Assembly (NCBI GenBank): GCA_902500055.1 | Contig: GCA_902500055.1_4131.1 | DNA length: 64,000 nt | Strand: one strand, 5' to 3' | Origin: Escherichia coli | Lineage (GTDB): Bacteria; Pseudomonadota; Gammaproteobacteria; Enterobacterales; Enterobacteriaceae | Shown here: in pieces, positions 10,265-54,002 of the stretch | Layout of the letters: every line of letters begins with the position of its first letter | Numbering within the stretch: the stretch's first letter is position 1 | Translations under genes and position numbers: made by a program | The notes under the pieces: model-generated | Told to the model about the DNA's origin: nothing | The model's input: only the letters and a program-made list of their open reading frames with translations | Database searches by the model: none

Positions 10265-11419
10265 TTACTTAAAGGTATTTACAATTTCCAGTACAGATTT
10301 TAGATACTTTTCATCAAACGTTTCAGTAAATCCTGACGGCAACTCTTCAGTACTTACTACTCCACTTTCAATGTACTGCTTGATAAACTTTTCCAGTAAG
10401 AGGGGTTTATTACCATCTTCGAAGAAACGTTCTACTAGTACTTCATGGACGAATTCAGAATCACGACTCTGTTCGTTCACTCTACGTTTCATATCACCAG
10501 TGATTCCATATTTGTAAACGGTTTTATCTTTATTAGTTAGTTTCTGTACATAAAAATATCCAGGCTTGGAAGTCTGATAACCATACTTACCGCATTTTGG
10601 ACAACCACGACCTGTCAAATGTGCTTTAGGTTGCTGATGAAAAATATTTTTACAATTGTTGCATTTTATCTCGACCATTTTTTCACTATGCTCATACATA
10701 ACAGATGAGTAATCATAATTATTGTTATGAACTTTTACAGCTTCTGCAATAAATTGCTCGGTTGTTCTCCCACCTTTACCTGAACATATACCACATCCTG
10801 ACTTCCCAAGTATCAATGTTTTTGGATCAACTTCCCAATCATGATTTCCTTCATTGCAATGCACTGTGACTTTTGTTGTTCTGTTAATATAGTTGGTTTT
10901 TTGGAAACTAAATTTATCACCATAATTACGTTTAACAATTTTTATAAATTCATTATTCGTATGCACTACATTAATATTACAAACGTTACATCCAGCACCA
11001 GTTAATAACTTATTTGGTGTTATGTGAAAATAACCATTATGTTTAGTGCAGAATATTGTAACTGGAGTTTTTGCATTAACATAAACCAATTTATCAAATT
11101 TAAATTTTTCAGTCCCGAATTTCTTTTCAACTTTTAAAATGAAATCATCATTATTGGAACGCTGGGACATGTTACTATAACAGTTAGAGCAAGTACATGA
11201 GATATGACGAATTGCAGACTTTGTATTTTCAATACCACATTTGTTACATTTCAAGGTAGTTTTGCTAGATTTAAAAATCATCGAATTAAAATCAAACTCA
11301 CCATACATTCCATATTTTTCATTCATTTTCTTTTTGAAATTTTCAATTAACATTTTCAATTTACTCAACTTGGTTTCGATTTGATAATTATATATAATTA
11401 AAAATATTCTGTCAAGCAT
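10265..11419 (-). CDS. Homing-endonuclease-like protein: four zinc-ribbon repeats plus C-terminal T5orf172/GIY-YIG-like domain
   Basis: Repeated units ending in paired Cys (CNKC, GCNVC, GCGIC, GCPKC). C-terminus GYFYVQKL...YKYGITGDMKRRVNEQ. Start ambiguous: 11419 chosen because the track start at 11560 would overlap the capsid gene; no RBS seen. Confidence 0.55.
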   Translation of the reverse strand: MLDRIFLIIYNYQIETKLSKLKMLIENFKKKMNEKYGMYGEFDFNSMIFKSSKTTLKCNKCGIENTKSAIRHISCTCSNCYSNMSQRSNNDDFILKVEKKFGTEKFKFDKLVYVNAKTPVTIFCTKHNGYFHITPNKLLTGAGCNVCNINVVHTNNEFIKIVKRNYGDKFSFQKTNYINRTTKVTVHCNEGNHDWEVDPKTLILGKSGCGICSGKGGRTTEQFIAEAVKVHNNNYDYSSVMYEHSEKMVEIKCNNCKNIFHQQPKAHLTGRGCPKCGKYGYQTSKPGYFYVQKLTNKDKTVYKYGITGDMKRRVNEQSRDSEFVHEVLVERFFEDGNKPLLLEKFIKQYIESGVVSTEELPSGFTETFDEKYLKSVLEIVNTFK

Positions 11420-11430
11420 TTTTTTAACAC

Positions 11431-11457
11431 AAAAGAAAAGGGACTCCGAAGAGTCCC
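11431..11457 (-). terminator. Rho-independent terminator of the major capsid gene
   Basis: GGGACTC-CGAA-GAGTCCC hairpin followed on the minus strand by TTTTCTTTT, 45 nt downstream of the capsid stop. Confidence 0.7.
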
Positions 11458-11501
11458 TATTGTTTTTATATTCTTGATTAAATCTTTTAAATCGTTTATA
11501 A

Positions 11502-12677
11502 TTACATGAAAGTAACGTTTTTGATAGCGATTTTGCTGTAGTAGTCAGCAGCGTTACCAAGAGATGAAGTACTGTCGGTTAGCTGAACGTAGCCATAGCG
11601 TGTTAAAAATGTGGTCACGAGTTCACCAGTGTTAGGGTCCATTACAGTACCAGAAGCCATTAGTGGGATGTATGGGCAATAGAATACACCAGCATCAGTT
11701 TCCGCATTACCTTTATAACCAATTAGAATATCTTCTGCATCACTAGCATAGGTATCAACGAAAATACGCATAGTGCTGTTTAGAGTACCTACAAACTTAA
11801 CGTTAGTTGGTGCTTCAAAAGTACCTTCAGTGGTACGTGCAAAGCTAGAAGTAGTAGCAGATTGTAGAATGGTTAGTGCAGTTGGGGAAACAACAGCCCA
11901 GTTTGCAGCACCACGCTTAGTACGACGAGCAACTTCGTTTGCTTGACGGTTAATTAGAGTAGCTAGAGCAGCGTGCTCATCACCAACGAAGGTTGCAACA
12001 CCAGTAACTTTAGATTGGTCATAAGTTACAGCAGCAGCACCAGGTAGTGCACGTAGACGGCTTAGTAGCTCTTGGTCGATTTCTACAGTAACTTCTTGAG
12101 CGATTGCAGCCATTAGTTCTGCTTCAACGTCAACACCATGTTGGGATTGAGCATCTTGTGCAGATTCAACAGTCCAACGTGCAGATAGACGACGAGATTT
12201 CGCTTCAACAGTTTCACGTAGAATACGGATGTTAACGCGACGACCCATAGTACCTTCTAGTTGGCTAGTAGGAGCAGCTTGTGGGTTGCTATTATCCGCA
12301 TTTAGATCACCAGAGTAGGATTTAGCGATTTTGTATGGAGAAAGCATTTCTTCACCAGCGATTACACCAGGTGCGTTATCAGCATATTGTACACGTAGGG
12401 TGTGGATCTGACCAACTGGACCAGTCATAGGTTGAACACCGATGATTTCGTTAGCAATAACGGTTGGCATTACACGACGCATAATTGGTAGAATCACTTT
12501 GTTTAGAGTAGCGATGTTACCAGCGGTAGTTGCACCAGAAGTTGCGGATTCAGTTAGCATAACTTTACGATGGTTATCAAGAACAGTTTCCATTACAGAC
12601 TTACGAGTACCCTGTAGACCTTCAACTAGTTTCTCTTTTACTGCTACCCATTTGGATTCATTTAGTAGTTGTGACAT
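11502..12677 (-). CDS. gp23: Major capsid protein (T4 gp23-like)
   Basis: NEIIGVQPMTGPVGQIHTLR, IEAKSRRLSARWTVESAQDAQSQHGVDVEAEL and GYKGNAETDAGVFYCPYIPL match conserved gp23 blocks. AAGGAG RBS; late promoter upstream; terminator downstream. Confidence 0.9.
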   Translation of the reverse strand: MSQLLNESKWVAVKEKLVEGLQGTRKSVMETVLDNHRKVMLTESATSGATTAGNIATLNKVILPIMRRVMPTVIANEIIGVQPMTGPVGQIHTLRVQYADNAPGVIAGEEMLSPYKIAKSYSGDLNADNSNPQAAPTSQLEGTMGRRVNIRILRETVEAKSRRLSARWTVESAQDAQSQHGVDVEAELMAAIAQEVTVEIDQELLSRLRALPGAAAVTYDQSKVTGVATFVGDEHAALATLINRQANEVARRTKRGAANWAVVSPTALTILQSATTSSFARTTEGTFEAPTNVKFVGTLNSTMRIFVDTYASDAEDILIGYKGNAETDAGVFYCPYIPLMASGTVMDPNTGELVTTFLTRYGYVQLTDSTSSLGNAADYYSKIAIKNVTFM

Positions 12678-13950: not shown

Positions 13951-14574
13951 TTAACCTTTTAATTTCTTGAAAAAATCGTATATTTCAGAATCTAAATTAT
14001 TTACTTTTTTAGATTCAGTGATTTTTTTAGAACTATTACAAGGTGATCCGTACTTACTCATCAGAGATTCAAATACCGCTGTTGGGTATGCTTCTGGAGC
14101 ACTAGGTTGAGCAACAATATCAATAGTGATAATTTCAAAATCAGAAACTATTCCATTATAATCAACGTTACCGGAACCGCGAGAACTTACACCAAGTTTT
14201 ACACCAGCCTCTAGCATTTTACGGATATTTTGACCATGTGCAGTATCAAGTAGTTTGATTTCTGCCATACCATTAGCACCTTCCATCCAAACCTTAGTAA
14301 TCATTGCTGCTACTCGGTCTAGGTTAATAGTTAGTGTTTCTGGATGGTCACATTCAACAAGAATGCTTTCACCTTTAGCTAAACGCTGGTTCATGTTATT
14401 TACTGCCCTTGTAATTTCAGATAAAGGGTAAATTCTCTCGTTCAAATTTCGTTGGTCGGCTTGAATAGCAATACCACGAAGATAGCAGTCACGCCCACCA
14501 AATCCATTATCACGATGTTCCAAAACAACTTTAGAATCATTGAATGAAGACCATTCACGAATCATACTACTCAT
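13951..14574 (-). CDS. gp21: Prohead core protease (T4 gp21-like)
   Basis: YLRGIAIQADQRNLNERIYP, ECDHPE, LGVSSRGSGNV and IITIDIVAQPSA match gp21 signature blocks. AAGGAG RBS. Confidence 0.9.
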   Translation of the reverse strand: MSSMIREWSSFNDSKVVLEHRDNGFGGRDCYLRGIAIQADQRNLNERIYPLSEITRAVNNMNQRLAKGESILVECDHPETLTINLDRVAAMITKVWMEGANGMAEIKLLDTAHGQNIRKMLEAGVKLGVSSRGSGNVDYNGIVSDFEIITIDIVAQPSAPEAYPTAVFESLMSKYGSPCNSSKKITESKKVNNLDSEIYDFFKKLKG

Positions 14575-26910: not shown

Positions 26911-26998
26911 TGTATTTTACTCTCCATGTTTAAATCCAATAGGTACAATCCTTGTACCATCAATGTTATTATAGCACCAAAAAGCAGTTTGTCCCACG

Positions 26999-38235: not shown

Positions 38236-38282
38236 TATCATAAATAAATCAAATGAATGAACGAATTATATGGAGTCCAAAA

Positions 38283-41200
38283 ATGACTAATAATTTTAAG
38301 TTTCAACCTACACAGATGGCTGAAGCAGTACAGAAGAAGCTTTTTATTAAAAGATTGCCTGAGTGGATGCAAGGCTTAGAAGATATTCAAAAAGTCAGTG
38401 ATGATGTTATTCAACAATGGTTTAATCCGGCTGAAAACGAATTAGTTGACGGCTATATTGGTGATATGGGTTCTCCTGCCGCTGCTGGTAATATCTTCTT
38501 ACATGAAAGTACTGTAGCACGTCAACTTTATCAGTTGTCCACTGCTTACGTCTCAAAAAATGATGATTCGACAATTCGTTCAATTCAATTTTATGATGAT
38601 CTAGTTGGATACATGAATCATTATGGAGCACTAACCGATAATGAAAGCCGTTTGTTCAACGGTAAGTTTTATGCATGGACTCCAGCTATTAACCCAAATA
38701 AAATGAACAATTTTAGCTCATATCTTTGGGATACTAAAAACTCTTATAATATTACTTCACCTGATTACATTGTAATGGAACGTGGAGCACTTAATGGTAA
38801 TACATGGTCACTACAAAACTTTTGGTATACTTTAGGTGAAACATTAGAAGATGGCTCAATATTAACTGAAGAATTAATGCAAGATTCACGTTTTATTCGT
38901 GCACGTGCACCAATTATTGAATATAATAAAAATATTGAGCTAATTAACTACGGTACAAAATTCCGTGGAACTGTTGATCTGTTCTCTGATATTATTAAAC
39001 CTGAAGATATCGTTCAAAAAGATATTAATAGTGGTATACGTATTGATGGTATTATTCCGCAAGATGGAATGCGTATTCTATTCACCAGTATTGGTAACAA
39101 TGGTGAAAACAATAGAATTTATAATGTATATGTGAAAAAAATGCAAGATGGTACTCGTGTTTATGGTTTAGCACTAGATCCAGAAGAAGAAACCGAATCA
39201 CGCCCAAGTGGTGAACCACAAGATGGTGATGTTGTTCTAATCACTAAAGGTAATGAGTATGGTAATAGTTCTATGTACTGGAATGGATCTTTGTGGGTTC
39301 GTGCACAATCAAAAACTAGTGTTAACGTATTCCCTAAATTCCAACTTTATGATCGTAATGGTATCAAACTTGACAACAGTACTACATATCCATCAAGTAA
39401 CTTTAAAGGTTCAGAGTTGTTTGGTTTTAAAATAAATTACAACTATGCAACTGATAGTGTATATGGATATAACATTGAACTTGGTGATTATAATTATTAC
39501 ATTTATGAAAACTTTTTACAATCCCAACGTTATACCTATGACCATCTTGGAAAAGAAGTTGAAATTGATGGTTTATACTATTATAACATTATTGATGAAA
39601 ATAATGAAATGAATCTTCAAACCGATTGGGTTCGTTCAGAAGAGTACTCTAAACAATTTGTAAAACAAACTCCACAAGTCAAACGTACTGATATGTATCG
39701 TGTATTCAGTACTGTTTATGATATGGAAGTTTTTAAAGAACCAGTTGATGGTATGTATGCATATGTTATTGAAGTTGATAGAACCTATCAGTACTATAAA
39801 GCAGACCGCGAAACTTATCTAGACTGGCATCCAATCACTGGTGATGGTGTTCAGATTGTAAAATATGACCATACATTCGAATTGGCACAAAAAGTTTTAG
39901 ATAATGATTCTGATATTATTGAAGTTGTGGTTGATGGTGTTGATGTGTCCAAATATACCAAAAATGTTTCAAAAGGTCAAGTACAAAGCATCACTCTAGA
40001 TAGTACTGTAGATTTGGATGAAGATTCTGTTATTCAAATCAGAACTTATAGCAGTACTGTAACTCCTAATAAAGAATTAGGTGCATATGAAGTTCCAATC
40101 AACCTACAAAATAACCCATATAATTCTAATATTATATACATTAACCAAGGTGACTACACTTTACATTTTCAGGATATTATTCAAAAGAACATTACACGTG
40201 GTTCTTCTGATGATTTCAATGACTATGAAGAACGTTTGGCTAAAGGATTGGTTAATAATGGCGTAGGTACTAAAATTATCCAAAATGAAGCATCTATGCT
40301 TCCATTGATGGCACATACTGCAAATGAAGATATTGATTTGTTTGAAGCAACTATGTTTATGCAATCTGAATATTTTAGATTCATTAATAAATTTAATACA
40401 CAAATGCTTCGTATGTATGATGAAAATCCATCAGACTTTTTACAAAATAGTGCTGCAAACATTGTTGATGCAATTTTAACTACTATTAATATGGGACGTG
40501 ATAGTTCATTCCCATTCTATTATGATAATGTTGGAAGTACTTCTGGATTCATTCGTGCATTTATACCACCAACACCACAGTTCTTAGGTATTCTTCAAGC
40601 ATATGTACCAGAAAAAGCGACATTCCTCACTGCTGGTAGTAAACCAAGCTGTTATAACATCAGTCATACTGGTATTATTTCCAAAGCATACCGTGTTATC
40701 AATGGTGTTGATAAAATGGATGATGTTGTATATGAATTAGAAAATAGAATTTTTAATAGTATTGATAATAAATTCAAAGATGTTGATTACGTACCAGTAT
40801 TGAATAGTGATGACCTTTTCCCTACACCATATTTCACTAAAACTGAATATAGTGCTGAAGAGAAACAAACATTATTACTACGTGGATACATTAACTTCAC
40901 CGCAACTAATGGTATCAGTAATAGTACACATGATTATGATCCTAACAATTGGAGAACTTGGAACTATACTGGCACTTATTATGTAGTTAATGGTCAAAGT
41001 ACTGAAATTCCTGCTCGTGGTTCATGGCGTGCAATTTATACTGACCAATATGGTACATATCGCCCTGCAACACATCCGTGGGAAATGTTTGGCTTTTCAC
41101 AGCGTCCAACTTGGTGGAACCAAGAATATGAACCAACTGCTGTTCAAGTTGGTGAGCGTGATAGTGATGTGGTATATGTATATGAAGCACTTGTTATGAA

Positions 41201-44200
41201 TGAACAAGGAGATTTAGTTCCTAGTGGTCTATGGGATATCGACGGCACTATCGGAGATAGTAGTACTGGTACTATTTTGTCTGGTGATCGCCGTGGACAG
41301 TATGACAAATATAAAAGATTTGGTGTACAGCCATTTAAAATCACAAAAACTGGTAATAAAACATCTTCCGGTATTGATATTTGTGTTGTTGAATATATTG
41401 CACCTGAAATTTTAGGTTTAGTGTCTGGTTCTTTAAATCATAGAGCAGAACCTTGGGCATATGGTGACATGGGTGACATGGAATTTACATACATGAACAC
41501 TACATTGTTTGCATATGACCAAATGCTACTTTTGTATAAAGCTAAACCTGCACAATTTGCTAACTATTTTTGGGATACCCGAAATGACAATTTAAAAGAA
41601 GTATTCACTGATGGTTCACAATTCCTTTATGGTGATACACGTAAGCGTATTAATTTTGATAAAAACACTGTAGTTCATGGTGAAAATAACACAAGAACAA
41701 TTGGTTATCAAATGTTTGTTAGTGATTATTTGATGTATCAAAATAAAAACATTACAACCAAATATGGGGATGTAGTTCGTTCTTCTTATATAAATGTTGG
41801 TCATAAAATTGGTGGTTTTACTAAAGCAGATCAGCTAACATTCAATGCTAAATCATTTGGTCTTATTTCACAAGAAAACCAAACTATTGGTCTTGTTCGC
41901 TCGAATAATATTCGTGATGAACAAATGAGTGCTATCAAAATTACTTGGAATGGTAGTGCATATCAGATTGATGGATATGATTTAGTTGGTGCTAAATTCA
42001 AATATAAACTGCCAGTGAAAAATGGTAGAAAAGTAACTCTTAAATTAGAAAACCGCAATGTTGTTCATTATAACGAATGGAAATCTGAAGCTTCCATTGA
42101 ATATGGTAAAGTTTTTAATAGTTACCAAGAAGTTTATACTTTTATTTGTGGTTATGGTGAATATCTTAAAGAACATGGCTGGATTTTTGAAGATGTAAAT
42201 GATAGTGGTGCTCAACAAGATTGGAACACTATTGCTAAAGATTTTGTGATCTGGAGTCAGAATTCTCTGGTAACGGGTGAATTTATTTCTTGTACACCAA
42301 GTGCAGCAAATGCTAAATTTGGTGCAGACTTTGGTTCAGTTCAATCTATTACACAAAATAACGGTGGTGTGTGGTCATTACTTGATGATAACAACCAAGG
42401 TATACGTCAATATGAAATTGAAACTTCTCGTATTGGTAATATCTTTACTGTTAGAACTTTAGAATCCAATAAACGTATAGCATTAATTCGTTTAAGTTTG
42501 TGTTCATATGAACATGCTGTTATTTTTGATGATAAGACTATTTTTGGTGATTATATCTATCAGCCAACTTATGGTTCTATTCAAGAATTAATTAAAATGT
42601 ATGGCTACATTACTGGTTCATGGACTGGTCGTCTACAAGCTCCTGGATTTATTATCTTGGAAGCTGGAACACTACCATCATTTGAAAAATTAGTGTCGGA
42701 TTTCCAACATTATTATGATAGTGAAACTCCAGTAAGTGATGTACAATTACAAGAGTTGTCAAACCATTTGATTGGTTATCAATCTCGTGATTATCTACAG
42801 CGTATGATTAGTAGTGATGTTAGTCGTGTTGATTTCTATAAAGGATTCATTCATGATAAAGGTACTAACCAAGTTTTAGAACGTGTACTTCGTGTTTCTA
42901 AATCATATGACACAGATGAATATAAAGCATTACAAGAATGGGCATTTAAAATTGGTACATATGGTAATATTGATGGTAAGAAAAACCTTCAATTTAAACT
43001 AATCAATGACCAATTTAAACAACAACCACAAATGGTATCTTTTGATGTAAACGCTACTTCAAATGGAAATGGAAACAATATTGTATACTTCGGCGAACAA
43101 GGTAAAGATCCTCGTTGGATTACACGTCCAAATGGTAAGTTCTCATTCCCGATGCGTAGTGGAAGAAGTGAAAACATTCAACTTCCAGATATTGGTCCAG
43201 TAACATTGGATGAAGTATCTTACACTACAAAAGATTTCAGTACTGCATATAATGACCGTATAACTTACACTAATGGTAAAGGTGAAAACCCTGAATCTGT
43301 TTGGATGTTTAAAGACGGAAATGGTTTATGGAATATTTTTGAATTAGTTGATACTAATGTGCAAATGGTTTCTATAACACCTATTGAAAATACCGATGTG
43401 TATGCTGAACAATTTTGTAAAGTAACTTTAACTGATAATGTGCCACTTGAAGATGGTGATTATTATTATTTTGTTGATGAAACTAACTTTATGCCAGATA
43501 CTTTAACAGTAGAAAGTCAATATTATACTGCTGGTTCTGATCCTAAAGTTATGGTAGTTCCATTTGACACTTCTATTGATATTGAATTTACTGATCCAGA
43601 TACACGTCCACGTTTGTATCGTTATGTATCACGTTTTGCCAGTGCAGAAGAGCGTCAAGCATATATTGACAAAAAGTATAGTTACAAAGCACCACAAAGT
43701 ACTTTTTTTGACCGTCCAACTACATATGATGAACGTACTAACATTACTGCATTATATCTAAATGTGTATGACCCTATCAATGGGGTTATTCCTGGTGCAG
43801 CAATGCAAAACGTAACTTATACGTCACCAATAGACCCAGCACAATATAATAGCAATGGTGAATTAATTCAGGCTTGGGGTGCTGATAAAGTTGGTCAAGT
43901 ATGGTGGAACACTAGCACTGCATTTTATTTGGATTATACTCGTGCAATTTATGACGCAGACGGTAATGTTGACATTGATGCAACCAATGAATACAAACGT
44001 TACAACTGGGGTCGTTTATTACCACATAGTACAATTGATGTGTTAGAGTGGGTTTGTTCACCAGTTGAGCCATATAACTGGGACAAATACTGTAAAGATG
44101 TTGCTAAGAAAAACAAAAATAATACTATGTATCTACCAAGTGGAACTGCACTTGAAGATAATTATAGTACATTTTTGGAATATGATAGTTCAACTGATAG

Positions 44201-47200
44201 TTATGTGACAAAATACTATTTCTGGGTACGTGATACAATTTATGTACCACCACTACATACCAGAACAAAATCATGTACTGACATTGCTCGTATTATTAAA
44301 GATCCAACACAGCTAAACATTCCTTGGTTCGCTCCAATCAATGAAAACTCGTTTATTCTTAGTAATATGCAATTTAAAGTGAATGATGATACCAGTATTT
44401 TAACTGTTTCTTATTACATGGATAGTACTGAAGTTGTTAAACATGACCAGTATCAACTATGTAAAGAAGGTGACAGCTATAACTTTAACCCACTAATTTG
44501 GGATTCAATGTGGAACTCACTAATTGGTCAAGAAACAACTGAATCAGGTTCTGTGATTAATTTATTATATCCAGATGTTGATAACGGTTTAGGTTCAAAC
44601 AAAACTTGGTTCCAAAATGTTATAGAAGCTCGTAGAAACTTTGTAGAAAGTGCTAATAATTATTATAGGTCACAAAACATAACCACTAATAGTGTTGTTA
44701 TGAAAGATGTGTTTAATGTTAAAACCACTGAAGTTAACCCTAATGAAGTTTCTTTCCGTGTCTTGTCTTACAATAATGAATTAGTTATTGCAGTTGAAAG
44801 TGATAAATTTAAAGAAAATGACGCTGTTATTTTAAGTACTAGTGGATATCTACCAAATCCATTAACTTCTAGTGCTGTTTATTTTATTCACTTCGACGAA
44901 AATGGATATATTCAGTTAATGAATAGTCCAGCAAACGCGGGTAGTGTTGTTACTATAACGTTAGAGAACAAAGGTGAGGGACAACATAAAATGATTAAGC
45001 AATCTGATTATGTTGAATCACTAGGAACTTCATTAGACATGACTCAGTACTGGTCATATGCTGATTGGTATGATGTTGGGTATGATAGTAACACGACTTA
45101 TACACAAGAGTCAAGCTTAGAAGATGCTAATACTAAAAACTACCAAGTTGGCGATATTATCAGAGTTACCGATAGTGAAAACATTTGGACATTGTATATT
45201 AAATCACAATCACGCGATTCAATTTATTGGAAAGCGATTGGTCGTGAAAACAGTACAGTTGAACTCAATGATATGCTTTACGCAGATTATAGTGTTCATA
45301 ATGATAATGGTTCACTAAGCAATCGTGAAATCAACGTTCGTAAAGCACTAGCTTTACTCAAAAATTCTTTCGATTTACATCAAAGCGAAATTGTTTTTGA
45401 TATGGTCAAATATGTACATGTTGAACAAAGTGTTGTGGATTGGGTATTTAAAACATCATATATCTATATTGTTGGTTTGGAACAATCATTAGTTCAAAAC
45501 TATTCAAACGATAATTTGATTAATCAAATTGTTGAATATTTTGAAGAAGTTAAACCTTATAGAACTAAAATTCGTTCACAAATAGAGCAAAAGACATCTG
45601 ATGATGATTTAATAAAAGGTCTATGTAATGATTTAGATCCTAATGGATATATTTTCGTTGATGGTTCTTGGATCAAAACTGAAAAAGATATTTGGGATTA
45701 TGAGTACGCTCAATTTAATGAAATTACCCAAAAATGGGAACAGGTAGGTTCACTACCAAGTGATTTCGTTACACCAAATAGAAGATTCCAAGAAATTGAT
45801 ATTATTATGCATTATGATAATATTCAGTGTAAACCAAATGAAGATTTGGCAAGCATAAATGAATTAGTAAGTGTTAATAACAAATATCAATCCAATGAAA
45901 AGGATGCTGTTAGTAACTATGAATTACAACGTTATATATATTCTTTCCCAGAATATAGTGAAGAAACTTTCGATCTTCTTATTGCTTATCAAATGCAAAT
46001 CTACTATCCAGAATTGGATGTAACACTAGGAACAGCATATGGCGTTAACCAGTGGTATAAAGACCATGCGGAAGATTTAGAAGCAACTGATGAATTCACT
46101 GCTACATTGGAACGTGTTTATAAAGAATCAACGCATAACGATATGTTTACTGACCTTAGACAATATGTTCAGTATAACACATTGGCAAACCGTTTGAAAC
46201 TTTATAAAGATATAAGTGATGAGAAAATTCACGATGAAGTTGGATGTGGATTTAGTGGACTTACTTATAATGACAATCCTAGTACTAGACTTCCATTAGG
46301 CTTTTCTTCTAGTAATGATTATAACTATGGATATTTTGAAATAAGCAGTGAATTGTATCAAAAATACATTTCATTAATTAAAGATAAAAATCCTGACGCA
46401 TCAGACTATGAAGTAAAAGTTAAACTTGAAGTTGAGTATGGTGTATATGTTTATCGTTATGATGAAGTAGGTGGTGATACCCGTTTCTATACTGATGCTA
46501 TTCACGTATTAGCAGGTATGAGAGGGTTATTCGACAAAGACGCTACTGATAAGTACGAAAAAGCTGAAGAGATTCTTAGTAAGACCCCAATTGATATCTA
46601 TGCAATTACAATGATTCCACGAAAATATGTTTACTTAAATGTTAACGGTGTATATCAAAGTATACCTGATGAACAAAGTATTGATGATTTCATGGAAGAT
46701 TATTTTATCACAAATGGTGAAATGGTTGAACTAGCTGAAATAAATCTTGATGATTTACCACTAGATCAAAATAATCCAATGTATTCTGATTATCAATATA
46801 TACTTGATAGTATTACTGAAGCTAAGTACTTCAATGATATGAATGCATTTGATAACCTAGCATTAGAATCTCAAACTTCTTCAATAAAATGGGAAGTTAA
46901 AGATGATGAGGTTGATCCTTATATTGTGGATATATCTGACATAAACCCTTCTGGGCGTGATGTTGGTCAAATTAGATTTACAGTTGATGGATATGGGTTT
47001 GACAATGTATCTCTTGTACAATTACGTGATAACAGCAGATATCAAACTGAAGGTATGGCAATTATCAATCCATATAAACATACAGAAGCAATTGTTAGTA
47101 TTCCTTCATATGCTAAGATTGAAAATGATATTAATAAAACAACATCGAAGTTTGATGAAAAATATTTCTATCGTGTGAGATCTATTAATAGCTTAACTGA

Positions 47201-48254
47201 AGCAGAAATAGTTGACAATGACCTATCTGATGGTGATAAGGTGATGATTTTCACTCCTGATGGTGAAGATTTTGTGAGATATCAAAATCACACATGGGAA
47301 ACAATCTTGCGTGTATCTAACATCAAAAACAATACAACTCCGATCCTATTCACTGTAAGAAATACAGGTAAGGAAACGATTGAATTGATTGATGAGAGTA
47401 CTGGTGCAGTTCTCCGTTATGATAACATCACTCTTGCACAACAAAATGAGCCAGTACAGCCTCTAGCATTGAACATTGTTCGTGTTAGAACATTTGCTGA
47501 CCCTGAATTTGTCAAGAATGGTATTAAATTGTATGAACAAAATAGAAATTACACCATTGATGTAATTAATTATGATGTTTTCTACGATACTACTTTAAAT
47601 GGTGGTAAGTACAATGACGGAATAACACCAGATGACGTTGACGTTTGGATAATCTCTAATGAAATATTTGATGTTGATGGAATTACTATCGATAACGGTT
47701 ATAACTTACCAATTACGGGTGCGGGAGTTCTTAGTGAATTGGCAAGAACTAAAATGACTGATAGTTTAGAAATCAACGTTATCGAATATGATTCAAGTGT
47801 TATTCAACCGTTTAGAAATAATGAAGGGATATGGGTTTATGGATTCCCAATGGTTGACGGTATGTATATCGGTGTTGTTGGTGGTACTGTTACTAACATC
47901 ACAACCATTAGTGAAGAAAATACAACCTATGTTTCTCAACCTAAATCAATAAGTCCTTATAGTATTAGAAATAATGTTTTATCCGGTTCAGCCGCAAACA
48001 TGAATGATATTATATCGATTGGATATGAAAAAGTTGAAGTTAGAAATGCAAATAATTTACTCCGTGGTGTAATGTATAGTGCAGAACATGATTTTAAACT
48101 TAATACTACATATTCTTTCAATGGAATTAATTTAGGTAATTATGATATGTTAAAACGTTACACACAAAATAGTTACACTATAGATCTTTCAGTATACACT
48201 GATAGTCTACAAGTTAGTGGTAATGATATTAAAAATATATTATTAGTTAAGTAA
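38283..48254 (+). CDS. Giant virion protein (about 3,323 aa), probable baseplate/fibre-network protein
   Basis: Uninterrupted 10-kb ORF; start set at the Met with a GGAG RBS (38283). No catalytic motif recognised; Asn/Tyr/Asp/Thr-rich. Synteny (after gp25 and gp6) suggests a gp7-like component. Confidence 0.75.
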   Translation: MTNNFKFQPTQMAEAVQKKLFIKRLPEWMQGLEDIQKVSDDVIQQWFNPAENELVDGYIGDMGSPAAAGNIFLHESTVARQLYQLSTAYVSKNDDSTIRSIQFYDDLVGYMNHYGALTDNESRLFNGKFYAWTPAINPNKMNNFSSYLWDTKNSYNITSPDYIVMERGALNGNTWSLQNFWYTLGETLEDGSILTEELMQDSRFIRARAPIIEYNKNIELINYGTKFRGTVDLFSDIIKPEDIVQKDINSGIRIDGIIPQDGMRILFTSIGNNGENNRIYNVYVKKMQDGTRVYGLALDPEEETESRPSGEPQDGDVVLITKGNEYGNSSMYWNGSLWVRAQSKTSVNVFPKFQLYDRNGIKLDNSTTYPSSNFKGSELFGFKINYNYATDSVYGYNIELGDYNYYIYENFLQSQRYTYDHLGKEVEIDGLYYYNIIDENNEMNLQTDWVRSEEYSKQFVKQTPQVKRTDMYRVFSTVYDMEVFKEPVDGMYAYVIEVDRTYQYYKADRETYLDWHPITGDGVQIVKYDHTFELAQKVLDNDSDIIEVVVDGVDVSKYTKNVSKGQVQSITLDSTVDLDEDSVIQIRTYSSTVTPNKELGAYEVPINLQNNPYNSNIIYINQGDYTLHFQDIIQKNITRGSSDDFNDYEERLAKGLVNNGVGTKIIQNEASMLPLMAHTANEDIDLFEATMFMQSEYFRFINKFNTQMLRMYDENPSDFLQNSAANIVDAILTTINMGRDSSFPFYYDNVGSTSGFIRAFIPPTPQFLGILQAYVPEKATFLTAGSKPSCYNISHTGIISKAYRVINGVDKMDDVVYELENRIFNSIDNKFKDVDYVPVLNSDDLFPTPYFTKTEYSAEEKQTLLLRGYINFTATNGISNSTHDYDPNNWRTWNYTGTYYVVNGQSTEIPARGSWRAIYTDQYGTYRPATHPWEMFGFSQRPTWWNQEYEPTAVQVGERDSDVVYVYEALVMNEQGDLVPSGLWDIDGTIGDSSTGTILSGDRRGQYDKYKRFGVQPFKITKTGNKTSSGIDICVVEYIAPEILGLVSGSLNHRAEPWAYGDMGDMEFTYMNTTLFAYDQMLLLYKAKPAQFANYFWDTRNDNLKEVFTDGSQFLYGDTRKRINFDKNTVVHGENNTRTIGYQMFVSDYLMYQNKNITTKYGDVVRSSYINVGHKIGGFTKADQLTFNAKSFGLISQENQTIGLVRSNNIRDEQMSAIKITWNGSAYQIDGYDLVGAKFKYKLPVKNGRKVTLKLENRNVVHYNEWKSEASIEYGKVFNSYQEVYTFICGYGEYLKEHGWIFEDVNDSGAQQDWNTIAKDFVIWSQNSLVTGEFISCTPSAANAKFGADFGSVQSITQNNGGVWSLLDDNNQGIRQYEIETSRIGNIFTVRTLESNKRIALIRLSLCSYEHAVIFDDKTIFGDYIYQPTYGSIQELIKMYGYITGSWTGRLQAPGFIILEAGTLPSFEKLVSDFQHYYDSETPVSDVQLQELSNHLIGYQSRDYLQRMISSDVSRVDFYKGFIHDKGTNQVLERVLRVSKSYDTDEYKALQEWAFKIGTYGNIDGKKNLQFKLINDQFKQQPQMVSFDVNATSNGNGNNIVYFGEQGKDPRWITRPNGKFSFPMRSGRSENIQLPDIGPVTLDEVSYTTKDFSTAYNDRITYTNGKGENPESVWMFKDGNGLWNIFELVDTNVQMVSITPIENTDVYAEQFCKVTLTDNVPLEDGDYYYFVDETNFMPDTLTVESQYYTAGSDPKVMVVPFDTSIDIEFTDPDTRPRLYRYVSRFASAEERQAYIDKKYSYKAPQSTFFDRPTTYDERTNITALYLNVYDPINGVIPGAAMQNVTYTSPIDPAQYNSNGELIQAWGADKVGQVWWNTSTAFYLDYTRAIYDADGNVDIDATNEYKRYNWGRLLPHSTIDVLEWVCSPVEPYNWDKYCKDVAKKNKNNTMYLPSGTALEDNYSTFLEYDSSTDSYVTKYYFWVRDTIYVPPLHTRTKSCTDIARIIKDPTQLNIPWFAPINENSFILSNMQFKVNDDTSILTVSYYMDSTEVVKHDQYQLCKEGDSYNFNPLIWDSMWNSLIGQETTESGSVINLLYPDVDNGLGSNKTWFQNVIEARRNFVESANNYYRSQNITTNSVVMKDVFNVKTTEVNPNEVSFRVLSYNNELVIAVESDKFKENDAVILSTSGYLPNPLTSSAVYFIHFDENGYIQLMNSPANAGSVVTITLENKGEGQHKMIKQSDYVESLGTSLDMTQYWSYADWYDVGYDSNTTYTQESSLEDANTKNYQVGDIIRVTDSENIWTLYIKSQSRDSIYWKAIGRENSTVELNDMLYADYSVHNDNGSLSNREINVRKALALLKNSFDLHQSEIVFDMVKYVHVEQSVVDWVFKTSYIYIVGLEQSLVQNYSNDNLINQIVEYFEEVKPYRTKIRSQIEQKTSDDDLIKGLCNDLDPNGYIFVDGSWIKTEKDIWDYEYAQFNEITQKWEQVGSLPSDFVTPNRRFQEIDIIMHYDNIQCKPNEDLASINELVSVNNKYQSNEKDAVSNYELQRYIYSFPEYSEETFDLLIAYQMQIYYPELDVTLGTAYGVNQWYKDHAEDLEATDEFTATLERVYKESTHNDMFTDLRQYVQYNTLANRLKLYKDISDEKIHDEVGCGFSGLTYNDNPSTRLPLGFSSSNDYNYGYFEISSELYQKYISLIKDKNPDASDYEVKVKLEVEYGVYVYRYDEVGGDTRFYTDAIHVLAGMRGLFDKDATDKYEKAEEILSKTPIDIYAITMIPRKYVYLNVNGVYQSIPDEQSIDDFMEDYFITNGEMVELAEINLDDLPLDQNNPMYSDYQYILDSITEAKYFNDMNAFDNLALESQTSSIKWEVKDDEVDPYIVDISDINPSGRDVGQIRFTVDGYGFDNVSLVQLRDNSRYQTEGMAIINPYKHTEAIVSIPSYAKIENDINKTTSKFDEKYFYRVRSINSLTEAEIVDNDLSDGDKVMIFTPDGEDFVRYQNHTWETILRVSNIKNNTTPILFTVRNTGKETIELIDESTGAVLRYDNITLAQQNEPVQPLALNIVRVRTFADPEFVKNGIKLYEQNRNYTIDVINYDVFYDTTLNGGKYNDGITPDDVDVWIISNEIFDVDGITIDNGYNLPITGAGVLSELARTKMTDSLEINVIEYDSSVIQPFRNNEGIWVYGFPMVDGMYIGVVGGTVTNITTISEENTTYVSQPKSISPYSIRNNVLSGSAANMNDIISIGYEKVEVRNANNLLRGVMYSAEHDFKLNTTYSFNGINLGNYDMLKRYTQNSYTIDLSVYTDSLQVSGNDIKNILLVK

Positions 48255-48291
48255 TAAAAAAAGGAGAGCATTATGCTCTCCTTTTCTTTTT
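48255..48291. terminator. Bidirectional rho-independent terminator shared by the giant ORF (+) and ClpA (-)
   Basis: A-run, GGAGAGCA-tta-TGCTCTCC hairpin, T-run; same stem sequence as the terminator at 1286-1309. Confidence 0.7.
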
Positions 48292-50580
48292 TTATACTAG
48301 TGCTTTATCTACAGCTTTGGTACGTTTCGGCTTAATACCGATTTTACCATCAATAACATCAAATGTAATGTTACCACCATTCACAAGTGAACCACACAAC
48401 ATTTCTTTAGCTAGTGGTACACGAATGTTTTGTTCAATGGTACGTTTCATTGGACGTGCACCCATGCCAACTTTTACCCCATTTTTCGCAAGCCATTCAC
48501 GTGCAGCTTTTGTTAATGTAACTTTAACATTACGGTCTTTGACTTGTTCATTCAAACCACCCATGAACTTATCAATGATGCTGTCAATAGCTTCACTGCT
48601 TAGGTCTTTAAACGTAACGATACTATCAATACGGTTAATAAACTCTGGTGGCAAGAATGCTTTAATTGCCTTGTCCTGTGCAGTGTCACTACCGCTCATA
48701 CCAATGCTACGCTTTGTTGAATCAGCCGCACCAAGGTTTGTAGTCATAATAACAGTTACGTTATTAAAATATACAGTTTTACCTTGAGAACCAGTCAGAC
48801 GACCTTCATCCAAAACCTGTAGGAAGGTTAGTAGTACTTTACGATCTGCTTTTTCAATTTCATCAAGTAACAGTACTGCATTAGGGAACTGCTCAATTTT
48901 ATCCAACAGTAAACCGTTACCAGAATCATGACCAACATAACCTGGAGGTGAACCAATTAGTTTAGAAACAGTATGTTCTTGAGAAAATTCTGACATATCA
49001 AAGCGAATCAGTTCCGCACCAGTTGCATCTGCTAATGCTTTGGTAATTTCTGTTTTACCAGTACCAGATGGTCCAACAAACATAAATGCACCCTGAACAC
49101 TAGATTTGTCACGCAGTCCTGCACGAGCTACCATCACGTTATCAACTAATTTTTGAATAGCTTCCTCTTGACCGTATACACGTGAGCGTAGTGCATCTGG
49201 TAGATTACGCATACGATCACTTTCAGTACATGCAACCACGTTGATATCCAAATTGGCAATACCAGCAACAACTTCTTGAATCAAATTGGCAGTAATAAGC
49301 TTACTATTGTTGTCACGTGAACGAACTTTTGCAGCGGCAGCGTCCATTAGATCAATTGCTTTATCTGGGAAGTGCTTATTCTTCAGGAATTTATCACTGA
49401 GAGAAATTACAGCATCCATTGCATCAGTTGTGAACTCAACATTATGGAATTTTTCATAAGTTGGTTTCAAACCATTAACAATTGCACGAGTTTCATCAAT
49501 TGACGGCTCAACTACATCAATTTTCATAAAACGACGAGTTAATGCACTATCTTTCTCGATATTTTTACGATATTCATCATATGTTGTTGCACCAATTACA
49601 CGAATCTCACCACGTGAAAGTGCTGGCTTAAGCATATTGCTCATGTCCATAGAACCATTACTTGCGGAACCAGCCCCAACCATAATATGAATTTCATCAA
49701 TGAAAACAATAGTATTTTCACGTTTCTTTAGTTCTTTTAGCAAATTGTCGATGCGTTCTTCAAACTCACCACGATACTTAGTACCAGCAGTCAATGCACC
49801 AACATTTAGTGAAAGAATTTCAACGTCTTTCAGGTGTTCAGGTACGTTGCCGTCAGCAATAGCTTGTGCAAGACCGTCGATGATTTGTGTTTTACCTACA
49901 CCAGCTTCACCAGTAAGAATAGCATTCTTTTTGGTTTTGCGAGCAAGAGTCTCAATCAATGCAGACAATTCTTTCTGGCGACCAATCATAGGATCTAGTT
50001 TGCCTTCTTTTGCAAGAGCAGTTAGATTCGTTGTATAGTCTTCCAAACCTTTTTGTTTAGATGATTGCTGCTGTTGGGCCACTTTTTTATCTCCAATCGG
50101 TTCGTCATTAATACTTTGTAAGTTGATACCCTTATCAAGTGACTCAACGTGTTTTTGCAATGCACGTGCAGCTTCAGTACAGCTAACACCTTCTTCTTTC
50201 AACGCAGCTTCTAGTGCTGTGTTAGGGAAAGACAGACATTCGAATAGAACAAAATATGCATCAATCGAAAAATCATCACTTTTTAGTTGTTCAATAACTG
50301 ATTTTTTAGAAAGCTCATGTACAACGCGATTCACTAGAAGTGAAGTGCGATTCGCGTCTTCATCTTTAACACTTTTTGGTGCATGTGGAACTGTTGTATT
50401 TTTAAGATAGTTCATCAGGCGGTTGTGCAGTTTGTCTGCATCAATGTTCATATCTTCAAATACGTTCTTGATGCTATCAATAGTCAGTACTGTGGCACTT
50501 ACGTGGTCAATAGTCAAGAATGTATGACCTAGAGATGTTGCCAGTTCGTCGCTTTTTTTGAACAATTGAGTAAGATTCAT
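48292..50580 (-). CDS. clpA: ClpA-type AAA+ unfoldase (two AAA modules, no ClpB middle domain)
   Basis: D1 Walker A GEAGVGKT, Walker B IVFIDEIH; D2 Walker A GPSGTGKT, Walker [11 protein letters not shown]1 leads directly into D2. D2 has KRSIGMSGS where ClpA carries its ClpP-docking IGL loop. Start set at the Met with AGGAG RBS (50580). Confidence 0.9.
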
Positions 50581-50620
50581 GTATTCTCCTATGTGATTCA
50601 CGTCACTCTAATTAATAAAC

Positions 50621-50649
50621 ATTATATCACATTCTTACGGTTTGTCTAC
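50621..50649 (-). promoter_or_regulatory. Sigma70-like promoter with extended -10 upstream of ClpA
   Basis: On the minus strand: TAGACA (-35), 17-nt spacer, TGaTATAAT; about 40 nt upstream of the ClpA start. Suggests host-RNAP (early) expression. Confidence 0.45.
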
Positions 50650-50690
50650 AAGGTAAATAAAGATATACCCGATTTATTTTGGAGACAAAC

Positions 50691-52184
50691 ATGACATATA
50701 GAATGTGGAAAAAAGGTAGAACCAATGATTACAAGTTCATTGATTCTGCCATTGCTGAACAATACAACATTGGTGGAGTTGACATGTGGCTTTATGCATA
50801 TGTCGGTCCAAAACAAGTTGCTGACAACACTGACTTATCCTATGGAGGTGATTATACATCTTCAGGATCAGTTGTGTCAAGTATTGGCGATTTAATTTTT
50901 GGTGACACACCAAACAGAAACTACAACCTTGAAGCTATCACACTTAGTTGTGTCTATCAAGTTCAAGAAGCAACTCCAGACTTGAAAATCCCAGGATTGT
51001 TCTTTAATTTCAACACTATGGACATCACAATCCATTATAATACAATGATGCAGCGTTTAGGTAGAAAAATCATGCCAGGGGATGTGATAGAACTACCAAA
51101 TTTACGTGATTTTGATGTATTGGGTAAAGATACAGGTCTAAACCGCTTCTATGTCGTCCAAGATGCATTTCGTACATCTGAGGGATACTCGGTTACGTGG
51201 CAACATCACATTTATAAACTTAGAGTTAAACCGCTAACCGACTCACCTGAGTACTCCGATTTACTCGGTAACAATAATTATCCTGATAATCCAGATGACC
51301 CTAATAATGGTAATGGAAATACCGATGATGGTTCGTCGGAAAACAGTAACTATGGCAATGAAATGGATATCATGAACCGTATCATCATGCAAGCTGATGA
51401 TGAAGTACCCTATATTCATTATACAAATGAACATTTGTATGATGATCGACCTGATACAGTAGATTTATCAAAATATATGCTTAACGGTTATGATTTTCCA
51501 GAAGAACCTGCCGATGGAATGTATTTTTTGAAAAAAACATACCCAGTACTCAAAGAGTTTGTTAATGATACATGGATTTCTGTGGAAGTCAAGCGTGGAA
51601 CCATCTTTCCCAGAAAACCAATGGATGGTGACTTCTTCTTTAAAGAAAATGACGCAGATGTGACAGGTTATACGTTGTATCAATATGATAAAAGTGCTAA
51701 AAAATGGTTAAATTGTGATGTAGAATATACTACCAGTGATGTTCCACCAGAAGATGTGGAAGATTTTTGTATTTTTTATAAAGAACCACACATTTATCAG
51801 TATAATGATGACAAGTGGGGGGAACCAAAGGTAACTTATGTCAATGAACCATTCACGTCCAATTGTGTATATGGTAATATTGATTCGCAACAAGATTATC
51901 GTCCTAAAATTCCACCAGCACGAGGTACAGTCCCTGAAGGAAATATGTTCCCAACTGATGCAGTAGATGGTGACTATTTCTATCGCACCGATTATACTCC
52001 AGTTACGTTATGGGAATTCAATGCAACTAAGAATTCATGGGTTATTTTTGATTATGGTGGAAGAAAACCGTGGGAAGGTGCAGACTTAGCACTTACACAG
52101 TTTGTAAATAGTGATAACAAAGTTCCATTACATGACGCAGTTAAACCTAATACTGTTTATCGCATACATAAGGACACAGAATGA
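50691..52184 (+). CDS. Hypothetical virion protein (possible neck protein), about 497 aa
   Basis: Directly upstream of the gp15-like gene, where T4 has neck genes 13/14. Start set at the ATG with a GGAGA RBS (the track start is a TTG). Contains a Gly/Asn/Asp-rich linker. Confidence 0.45.
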   Translation: MTYRMWKKGRTNDYKFIDSAIAEQYNIGGVDMWLYAYVGPKQVADNTDLSYGGDYTSSGSVVSSIGDLIFGDTPNRNYNLEAITLSCVYQVQEATPDLKIPGLFFNFNTMDITIHYNTMMQRLGRKIMPGDVIELPNLRDFDVLGKDTGLNRFYVVQDAFRTSEGYSVTWQHHIYKLRVKPLTDSPEYSDLLGNNNYPDNPDDPNNGNGNTDDGSSENSNYGNEMDIMNRIIMQADDEVPYIHYTNEHLYDDRPDTVDLSKYMLNGYDFPEEPADGMYFLKKTYPVLKEFVNDTWISVEVKRGTIFPRKPMDGDFFFKENDADVTGYTLYQYDKSAKKWLNCDVEYTTSDVPPEDVEDFCIFYKEPHIYQYNDDKWGEPKVTYVNEPFTSNCVYGNIDSQQDYRPKIPPARGTVPEGNMFPTDAVDGDYFYRTDYTPVTLWEFNATKNSWVIFDYGGRKPWEGADLALTQFVNSDNKVPLHDAVKPNTVYRIHKDTE

Positions 52185-53537: not shown

Positions 53538-54002
53538 ATGAATGAAGCGGTTGGTGCTATATTTTTATCAAAAAGTACTGGACATATGATGTTAAACTTG
53601 CGTTCTGAAAGAAGTACCTATTCTAACAACTGGGCATTTGTTGGTGGAAAGCTTGAACATAACGAAACACCACTACAAGGTCTGATGAGAGAAATTAAAG
53701 AAGAGTTGGGCAACTCAATACCTAACATTATTGATATTATACCGTTTGATGTATTTTGTACAAAAAATGGTAAATTTAAATATTATTCATTTGTTATTGT
53801 AGTTGAGAATGAATTTGTACCAACTTTAAATCATGAAAGCTCTGGTTATGCTTGGGTTAGAATTGGTTCTTGGCCTAAACCATTACACCCTGGTGCTAAA
53901 AATACTTTACTTAACACAAACTTAATGAAAGATTTTTACTCACTATGGGAAAGTATACGTGAAGGTACACAGTTTGTCAACAGTTTACCATATAGATATT
54001 AA
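53538..54002 (+). CDS. Nudix hydrolase
   Basis: Canonical Nudix box GGKLEHNETPLQGLMREIKEELG (G-x5-E-x7-REUxEExGU). AAAGGAGG RBS. Confidence 0.85.
   Translation: MNEAVGAIFLSKSTGHMMLNLRSERSTYSNNWAFVGGKLEHNETPLQGLMREIKEELGNSIPNIIDIIPFDVFCTKNGKFKYYSFVIVVENEFVPTLNHESSGYAWVRIGSWPKPLHPGAKNTLLNTNLMKDFYSLWESIREGTQFVNSLPYRY

Follow-up and report, generated by a model that had tools for sequence, protein, structure and literature searches.

Positions 48292 to 50649 of a 64,000-nucleotide (nt) stretch of DNA from an Escherichia coli assembly (GCA_902500055.1, contig GCA_902500055.1_4131.1) hold a clpA-like gene, clpA in the following, which lies on the minus strand among phage structural genes. The whole stretch is referred to as the window, and the coordinates of the features are collected in Table 1. 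In a megablast search the interval of the gene was matched by 56 phage records, 19 of which were at least 99% identical, including PBECO4, 121Q, phAPEC6, slurp01, SP27 and Sharanji. On the strength of the identity of at least 99% to PBECO4, 121Q and phAPEC6, the window was assigned to Asteriusvirus, as part of a Rak2-like jumbo coliphage with a genome of about 350 kb. The window aligned with the complete genome OR844650.1 at 98.5-98.9% identity over positions 107,322-169,052; in the final ~2 kb, ending at position 170,383, identity fell to about 86%. The six-frame open reading frames (ORFs) of OR844650.1 were searched with E. coli ClpP, ClpS, ClpX, ClpA and ClpB.

The longest ORF of clpA (48292..50601, minus strand) encodes 769 amino acids from a GTG at 50601, which is merely the first possible start. 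The true start was placed at ATG 50580, since a ribosome-binding site (RBS), AGGAGA, is well spaced upstream of it and the resulting 762 amino acids equal the length of phAPEC6 gp246c in GenBank. The GGAG/AGGAG element upstream of clpA is kept in the aligned relatives. The protein is 99.7% identical in amino acid sequence to the annotated ClpA of PBECO4, slurp01 and SP27, and it matched phrog_4871 end to end with 1035 bits. The gene is not new: it is labelled ClpA-like in many GenBank records and is an already annotated, clade-wide core gene. The gene has also been noted in the literature (PMC6102473, PMC7824862), where Iyer et al. mention phage ClpA, ClpX, ClpP and ClpS (PMC7824862). The ClpP and ClpS-like proteins described below are likewise labelled in several GenBank records. 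Experimental work on the ClpA, ClpP or ClpS-like protein of these phages was not found in the searchable literature.

As judged from its sequence, the gene product is an intact, divergent double-AAA+ unfoldase of the ClpA type, composed of an N-domain and the two modules D1 and D2. NCBIfam ClpA TIGR02639 was the best model and matched in a single stretch (model positions 4-732 of 734, 754.8 bits), whereas the ClpB, ClpV, ClpK and ClpG models matched in two pieces. E. coli ClpA was the best of the solved structures in the PDB (1ksf, E 1e-180, one stretch), followed by ClpC, ClpB and Hsp104 structures, each matching in two stretches. A three-way alignment gave 44% identity to E. coli ClpA and 40% to E. 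coli ClpB, and the ClpB middle domain of about 120 residues faced a gap in the phage protein. ClpB/Hsp104 and ClpC belong to the same class I double-AAA+ family, but the phage protein is without their coiled-coil middle domain. Identity as a ClpB or ClpC was ruled out by this missing domain and by the two-piece matches, and the initial annotation, which had described a full ClpA architecture without a ClpB-type middle domain, was borne out in both respects. The equivalog cut-offs were missed, with 754.8 versus 993.15 bits for TIGR02639 and 655.7 versus 1350 bits for PRK11034. The protein is best described as divergent ClpA-type, having the architecture of ClpA and a score below the NCBI equivalog level.

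Pfam domains found were Clp_N, AAA, AAA_lid_9, AAA_2 and ClpB_D2-small. The Clp_N match was weak (21.7 bits against a cut-off of 20.7) and covered one repeat only; the N-terminal region was nevertheless collinear with the N-domain of ClpA in the NCBIfam and PDB matches, and the AlphaFold2 (AF2) model has eight helices in residues 3-148. The mean predicted local distance difference test (pLDDT) score of the AlphaFold model was 79.5, and the model contains the N-domain (3-148), a disordered linker (156-176), D1 and D2. The D1-D2 body superposed on the ClpA chains of the ClpAP complexes 6w20 and 7uix with a Foldseek template modelling (TM) score of 0.88 and a root-mean-square deviation (rmsd) of 3.8 A. 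The Walker A and B motifs, pore loops, arginine fingers and sensor-2 were invariant or nearly so among 120 homologues. Column identity was 75-78% in the D1 and D2 large domains, 49% in the N-domain and 36% in the linker. Compared with E. coli ClpA (PDB 1ksf, 6w1z, 7uiv; TIGR02639), the N-D1-D2 order, the motifs and the place of the docking loop are the same. The phage protein differs by an IGM in place of IGL in that loop, by an insertion within the second repeat of the N-domain and by a Gln/Lys-rich linker unlike that of E. coli ClpA; furthermore, the phage gene lies away from clpS and under a phage promoter.

It is highly improbable that clpA is a recently captured host gene (a moron) without a dedicated phage role, or a decaying copy, although its cellular type and its isolated, antisense transcription unit would fit such an origin. 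Recent host capture was rejected on the identity of only 44% to E. coli ClpA, the phage-like G+C content of 0.37 and the synteny, which is the same across the whole clade. The catalytic motifs, all of which are invariant, also speak against this explanation.

The predicted ClpP-docking tripeptide IGM aligned exactly with IGL of E. coli ClpA in the three-way comparison, in agreement with the initial annotation. At the same place ClpB, which is without a docking tripeptide, has FGE. In the AF2 model residues 624-630 form a protruding loop of low confidence (pLDDT below 50). The canonical docking tripeptide is [LIV]-G-[FL], and the Met of IGM is non-canonical compared with Leu or Phe. Across the clade the forms IGM, LGL, LGM, IGV, IGA, IGG, M[NS]M, MGM, LGF and VGF were found, and several follow lineages: IGV in RaK2, M-N-M and M-S-M in the SE_PL group, MGM and LGM in the GAP32 group, and LGF and VGF in XaC1. 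A hydrophobic tripeptide is kept in most of the clade, and the IGG and IGA variants could equally mean that docking is weakened.

Six-frame phmmer searches of the 64-kb window gave no homologue of ClpP, ClpS or ClpX, and the prohead protease is of the gp21 type. The lack of a ClpP gene in the window and the type of the prohead protease had been pointed out in the initial annotation, which had suggested from the former that the protein may dock onto host ClpP or act alone. This suggestion did not survive a search of the wider genome. A ClpP homologue was found about 82 kb from clpA in OR844650.1, and clpP together with a gene of ClpS fold occurs in that genome and throughout the Rak2-like clade. 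With a phage clpP present elsewhere in the genome, the interpretation shifts from use of the host peptidase to a probably self-contained protease. The phage ClpP is 37% identical to E. coli ClpP (phmmer E 1.5e-32; Pfam CLP_protease 141 bits), and it scored 152 bits on the clpP model TIGR00493 versus 51 bits on a ClpP-related head-maturation model. Its Ser-His-Asp triad (S113/H139/D188) is intact, as it is in five other phage ClpPs. A ClpP with intact triad is also encoded by PBECO4, 121Q, phAPEC6 (gp353c, annotated ClpP), RaK2 and GAP32. The gene sits among nucleotide-metabolism genes. Its promoter, TGGACA with the xxGACA-N13-TGaTATAAT arrangement, lies about 35 nt before the clpP RBS and belongs to the same class as the clpA promoter described below.

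In records annotated with Pharokka and in RefSeq, the ClpP-like protein is called 'head maturation protease' (phrog_94). A role as prohead protease was excluded by the gp21/S77 enzyme in the head module, by true-ClpP scores three times higher and by the metabolism-gene neighbourhood. The label is likely a systematic mis-annotation, because the gp21/S77 enzyme is the genuine prohead protease. As a separate observation, translation of RaK2_00489 (ClpP; JQ513383.1 299998-300993) probably begins 16 codons downstream of the annotated start, at the second Met, as indicated by a TTGACA-N17-TGtTACAAT promoter and a GAGGAAA RBS found within the 5' end as annotated.

The docking surface of the phage ClpP was compared with that of E. 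coli ClpP at 16 residues of the acyldepsipeptide (ADEP)/IGL-loop pocket, listed in bioRxiv 10.1101/2023.03.01.530711. In the Asteriusvirus ClpP four of the 16 positions are identical and 12 differ. V44K and L114G are common to the four enterobacterial-phage ClpPs compared, and Y60 is replaced in all of them (by T in three and by V in RaK2). Position 82 varies among the phages, being S, Y, N or C. When ClpA and ClpP of the same phage were paired, IGM went with S82 (Asteriusvirus), IGV with Y82 (RaK2), LGM with N82 (GAP32) and M-N-M with C82 (SE_PL/7t3). Covariation of the tripeptide and the ClpP pocket is only suggestive, four pairs being too few for statistics. All compared phage ClpPs also have a conserved C-terminal extension of about 20 residues (…KRRGGVEEWV). 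Engineered disulfide crosslinking placed the C-terminus of ClpP close to the IGL loop of ClpA (PMC7707817), so the phage extension would sit at the docking site.

These results bear on the possibility that the phage ClpA docks via IGM onto E. coli ClpP, instead of or besides the phage ClpP, which is unlikely in our judgement. IGM is a conservative variant of IGL, with Met for Leu at the aligned position, the fold of D2 can be superposed on that of ClpA bound in ClpAP, and the phage meets abundant host ClpP as soon as infection begins; all results are compatible with mixed pairing. However, the clade has its own ClpP, predicted to be catalytically intact and under the same promoter class as clpA, so that use of the host peptidase is not needed. 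The wide variation of the tripeptide among phages whose hosts have very similar ClpP also argues against it, because a conserved host pocket should constrain the loop. The same is true of the phage ClpP itself, with its 12 altered pocket positions and a C-terminal extension beside the docking cleft. The pattern agrees with a ClpA-ClpP interface that co-evolves and is possibly orthogonal, and less well with a loop held by a conserved host pocket.

A ClpS-like protein of 181 amino acids was the third component found in OR844650.1. It scored 24.7 bits against the Pfam ClpS cut-off of 23. A profile of 14 homologues searched against the PDB gave E 3.6e-8, and the top ten matches were all ClpS. The AlphaFold model (pLDDT 81) superposed on E. 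coli and Caulobacter ClpS with Foldseek TM scores of 0.88-0.92 and an rmsd of 1.2 A. The core is preceded by an additional, conserved beta-rich domain and followed by a helix. Three pocket changes are kept within the phage family (N34D, M40A and H66N in E. coli numbering), and M40 is a specificity gatekeeper of ClpS, so that an altered N-degron range of the adaptor is conceivable. E79 of E. coli ClpS is kept as the invariant E128 and K84 is replaced; usable residues of the interface between ClpS and the ClpA N-domain were not found in the literature. In phAPEC6 the gene is gp164c, annotated as hypothetical. It lies directly downstream of a phage gene for an initiation factor 3 (IF-3)-like protein, gp165c (phAPEC6 94412-95474), and with a gap of 13 nt the two are probably co-transcribed. 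No promoter was assigned to the clpS-like gene, the nearest member of the class shared by clpA and clpP (75,796, OR844650.1) being more than 3 kb upstream and apparently inside a coding region.

The transcription unit of clpA was delimited next to its neighbours. The gene is convergent with a 3333-amino-acid ORF (38253-48254, plus strand) and divergent from tail genes starting at 50691 (plus strand), so the opposite orientation to flanking late genes given in the initial annotation is correct. Upstream lies the candidate promoter P1, with an extended -10 element, TGaTATAAT, at 50629-50621 (TG at 50629-50628). The promoter is the one previously noted, but its spacer is 16 and not 17 nt. P1 is alone in the window in combining TGnTATAAT with a -35 that matches at five or more of six positions, against 0.21 expected. 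Sigma70-like matches overall were not enriched at 47.8-51.2 kb, with 11 found versus 12.9 expected. P1 is made more credible by its conservation in relatives and by its membership of a genome-wide promoter class. The locus was compared in six relatives with 88, 85, 75 (RaK2), 70 (SE_PL), 62 (GAP32) and 53% (XaC1) protein identity. The extended -10 was kept, at an unchanged distance from the start codon, in 7/7 aligned relatives, down to 53% identity. The -35 varies: relatives closer to the window have TTGACA or TAGACA, and GAP32 and XaC1 have GGAACG or TGAAACA; the form in GAP32 and XaC1 resembles a second promoter class described for CBB (PMC5259590).

OR844650.1 has 18 copies of the class GACA-N13-TGnTATAAT, all on the minus strand, where the non-structural genes lie, and none on the plus strand, with 0.2 expected. 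The variants are [GT]GGACA or TAGACA-N16-TATAAT with an obligatory TG extension, and in the window the class is also represented at position 26968 (minus strand). Versions with the canonical TTGACx are concentrated in the 3-50 kb region of OR844650.1. At the other end of clpA, a predicted bidirectional terminator lies between the stop codons of the 3333-amino-acid gene and clpA, its hairpin bordered by an A-run on one side and a T-run on the other. A TAAATA facing the divergent tail genes shares the 110-nt intergenic region with P1, on the opposite strand, and is similar to ATAAATA, which has been reported as a late motif of CBB and GAP32 (PMC5259590). Taken together as predicted, these elements make clpA a self-contained, antisense, non-late, single-gene unit inside a late tail/baseplate module. 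The promoter class, which appears to serve many non-structural phage genes, is of sigma70 type and seemingly pre-late; it could be early or middle. Early expression by the host polymerase, as proposed in the initial annotation, is plausible but too specific, as the class could be middle. No transcriptome for this clade was found in the literature on Asteriusvirus, phAPEC6, Sharanji, CBB and PA5oct, from which only predicted promoter motifs of CBB could be used.

A second candidate promoter, P2, was located inside a plus-strand tail-gene ORF. In five of the six relatives, hexamers matching at 11-12/12 were found at the corresponding position, separated by a spacer that is variable. P2 may serve clpA as a second promoter or give rise to an antisense RNA directed at the 5' end of the late tail mRNA, or it may be the result of protein-coding constraint (…DY…/…VSSIGDLIFGD). 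A weak terminator-like hairpin (50718-50747, minus strand) was seen downstream of P2.

The distribution of the three genes was studied by tblastn over 50,697 phage records. ClpA-like proteins of at least 60% identity were found in 71 records, ClpP-like proteins of at least 60% in 70 and ClpS-like proteins in 72, and co-occurrence was judged from the counts per genus and identity band. The hosts of phages with any of the three belong to the same genera, Escherichia, Klebsiella, Salmonella, Erwinia, Yersinia, Pectobacterium, Serratia, Cronobacter and Xanthomonas. In the six relatives compared above (hosts Escherichia, Klebsiella, Salmonella, Cronobacter and Xanthomonas; 88-53% identity), clpA always lies between the protein of about 3330 amino acids and the 495-amino-acid, gp15-like and NUDIX genes. 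The virion proteome of phAPEC6 comprises 62 proteins and contains neither ClpA (gp246c) nor ClpP (gp353c), while the flanking gp245 and gp248 are present (PMC7247149). The absence of ClpA and ClpP from these virions indicates an intracellular role, and a function as virion component was rejected on this ground.

ClpA alone is known to remodel proteins, and the phage protein might be a ClpP-independent chaperone or remodeller for virion morphogenesis, acting for example on the adjacent 3333-amino-acid virion protein. The strictly conserved place in the six relatives would suit such a function, as would the weak docking tripeptides (IGA, IGG) of some clade members, and Iyer et al. proposed a translocase or assembly role (PMC7824862). 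We nevertheless regard it as rather improbable. The gene lies on the opposite strand under a sigma70-type, non-late promoter, in contrast to the late-type TAAATA at the tail genes, and its product is missing from the phAPEC6 virion. Retention of a hydrophobic tripeptide in most of the clade and the co-occurrence of ClpP and ClpS throughout likewise speak against morphogenesis as the full explanation.

The ClpA-like protein is probably the ATPase of a self-contained phage ClpA-ClpP protease with its own ClpS-fold adaptor, expressed before the late genes. This explanation is favored because the three genes are retained together down to 53% ClpA identity and because clpA and clpP share a promoter class. 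In such a system clpA would be transcribed singly from its extended -10, sigma70-type promoter, and transcription would end at the bidirectional hairpin. Substrates would be unfolded by the KYR and GYVG pore loops of the ClpA hexamer and passed on to a 14-mer of the phage ClpP, onto which the hexamer would dock via the IGM loops. The ClpS-fold adaptor, with its extra N-terminal domain, may select or re-direct the substrates.

Several points weigh against a self-contained phage protease or limit the case for it. The joint working of the ClpA, ClpP and ClpS-like proteins is inferred, and the timing of expression was deduced from promoter sequence. The clpP and clpS-like genes were seen in near-identical relatives, the window being 64 kb of a genome of about 350 kb. 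The three genes are dispersed, with the clpS-like gene and clpP about 82 kb from clpA on either side; there is no clpS-clpA operon, whereas clpS and clpA are adjacent in E. coli. The tripeptide is unusually plastic, and IGA, IGG and M-N-M would be poor canonical ClpP anchors. The antisense position in the tail/baseplate region is conserved to 53% identity and could indicate a morphogenetic role. Finally, ClpP was detected in CBB virions, by one peptide only (PMC5259590).

The other Rak2-like ClpA-like proteins (121Q ORF581, PBECO4, phAPEC6 gp246c, RaK2_00069, GAP32 and CBB; phrog_4871) represent the same gene in identical synteny without material difference, with 75% identity in RaK2 and 62% in GAP32. 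An unfoldase and a peptidase are also encoded by two phages of other clades, Agrobacterium phage Atu_ph07 and Pseudomonas phage PA5oct, whose ClpA is 38-41% and ClpP 33-40% identical. The set of PA5oct consists of ClpA and ClpP, and Atu_ph07 encodes ClpX, ClpA, ClpB, ClpP and ClpS (PMC6102473). Atu_ph07 thus has ClpX and ClpB in addition, whereas the ClpA-like protein was the sole Clp ATPase found in the Asteriusvirus genome OR844650.1. Phages are known to manipulate host proteolysis by small inhibitors or adaptors, and a complete set of unfoldase, peptidase and adaptor is much less studied. An adaptor-like protein of phage SPO1, for example, is reported to act on B. subtilis ClpCP (PMC6873191). 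In both cases a phage intervenes in Clp-dependent proteolysis, but modulators of the SPO1 type are small and adaptor-like and target the machine of the host, while Asteriusvirus brings ATPase, peptidase and adaptor.

If a dedicated phage machine exists, it would be a tractable case of virus-owned regulated proteolysis in bacteria, and orthogonal ClpAP pairs for use in synthetic degradation systems might be drawn from it. A bolder proposal, which we put forward tentatively and hold to be doubtful, is that the Rak2-like jumbo phages possess a private, orthogonal ClpAPS protease, insulated from host ClpX, ClpA and ClpP and able to be aimed at specific host proteins, for instance of defence or housekeeping, in the course of the long infection cycle of jumbo phages. 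It is suggested by the lineage-recoded tripeptide, which is of Met type in this phage, by the remodelled ClpP pocket with its C-terminal extension, and by the two-domain adaptor with an Ala at the gatekeeper position.

Table 1. Positions of clpA, its predicted domains and control elements, and related genes. Positions refer to the window unless OR844650.1 is named.
Feature	Position	Strand	Basis or remark
clpA-like coding sequence, 762 amino acids	48292..50580	-	ATG 50580, stop TAA 48292-48294
RBS AGGAGA	50585..50590	-	4 nt before ATG; GGAG core 50586-50589, 5 nt before ATG
N-domain, residues 1-150, Clp_N type, all-alpha, eight helices	50131..50580	-	Pfam and AF2
Flexible Gln/Lys-rich linker, residues 151-180	50041..50130	-	AF2, pLDDT <50 at 156-176
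D1 AAA+ module, residues 181-445	49246..50040	-	Pfam AAA and AAA_lid_9
D1 Walker A GEAGVGKT, residues 224-231	49888-49911	-	motif
D1 pore loop KYRG, residues 268-271	49768-49779	-	motif
D1 Walker B IVFIDEIH, residues 291-298	49687-49710	-	motif
D2 AAA+ module including D2-small, residues 446-750	48331..49245	-	Pfam AAA_2 168 bits, ClpB_D2-small 77 bits
D2 Walker A GPSGTGKT, residues 503-510	49051-49074	-	motif
D2 pore loop GYVG, residues 547-550	48931-48942	-	motif
D2 Walker B LLLDEIEKA, residues 570-578	48847-48873	-	motif
IGM (I626-G627-M628) at predicted ClpP-docking loop position	48697..48705	-	alignment with E. coli ClpA IGL
Sensor-2 GARPMKR, residues 707-713	48442-48462	-	motif
Candidate promoter P1: -35 TAGACA (50648-50643), 16-nt spacer, TATAAT (50626-50621)	50621..50648	-	scan 11/12 plus TG
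Predicted bidirectional intrinsic terminator	48259..48285		GGAGAGC/GCUCUCC hairpin, 12 pairs, T-tract on plus, mirror-image T-tract on minus
TAAATA, late-promoter-like, facing divergent tail genes	50654..50659	+	5/6 columns invariant (T42 A43 T44 T46 A47)
Candidate promoter P2, TTGACA-N18-TATAAT, 12/12	50851..50880	-	inside plus-strand tail-gene ORF, ~270 nt upstream of clpA
gp21-type Peptidase_S77 prohead protease	13951-14574	-	74.6 bits, phrog_207; between gp20-like portal and gp23-like major capsid protein
ClpP homologue	OR844650.1 238,989-239,681	-	~82 kb from clpA
ClpS-like protein, 181 amino acids, ClpS core at residues 64-140	OR844650.1 72,118-72,660	-	~83 kb from clpA, on the side opposite clpP

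Some observations were made on other genes of the window. The 3333-amino-acid ORF next to clpA corresponds to phAPEC6 gp245 (382 kDa), which was detected in virions (PMC7247149). Its relatives record no Pfam match, and its length is 3322-3346 amino acids in all six divergent relatives. On the other side of clpA, the NUDIX hydrolase gene of the tail module (53538-54002, plus strand) comes right after the gp15-like tail-sheath stabiliser and is conserved in 6/6 relatives. In the head region an ORF of 431 amino acids (10265-11560, minus strand) lies directly downstream of, and slightly overlaps, the gp23-like major capsid gene (11502-12677). It has a treble-clef zinc-finger (DUF4379) and a HypA-like match, and is an odd neighbour for a capsid gene.

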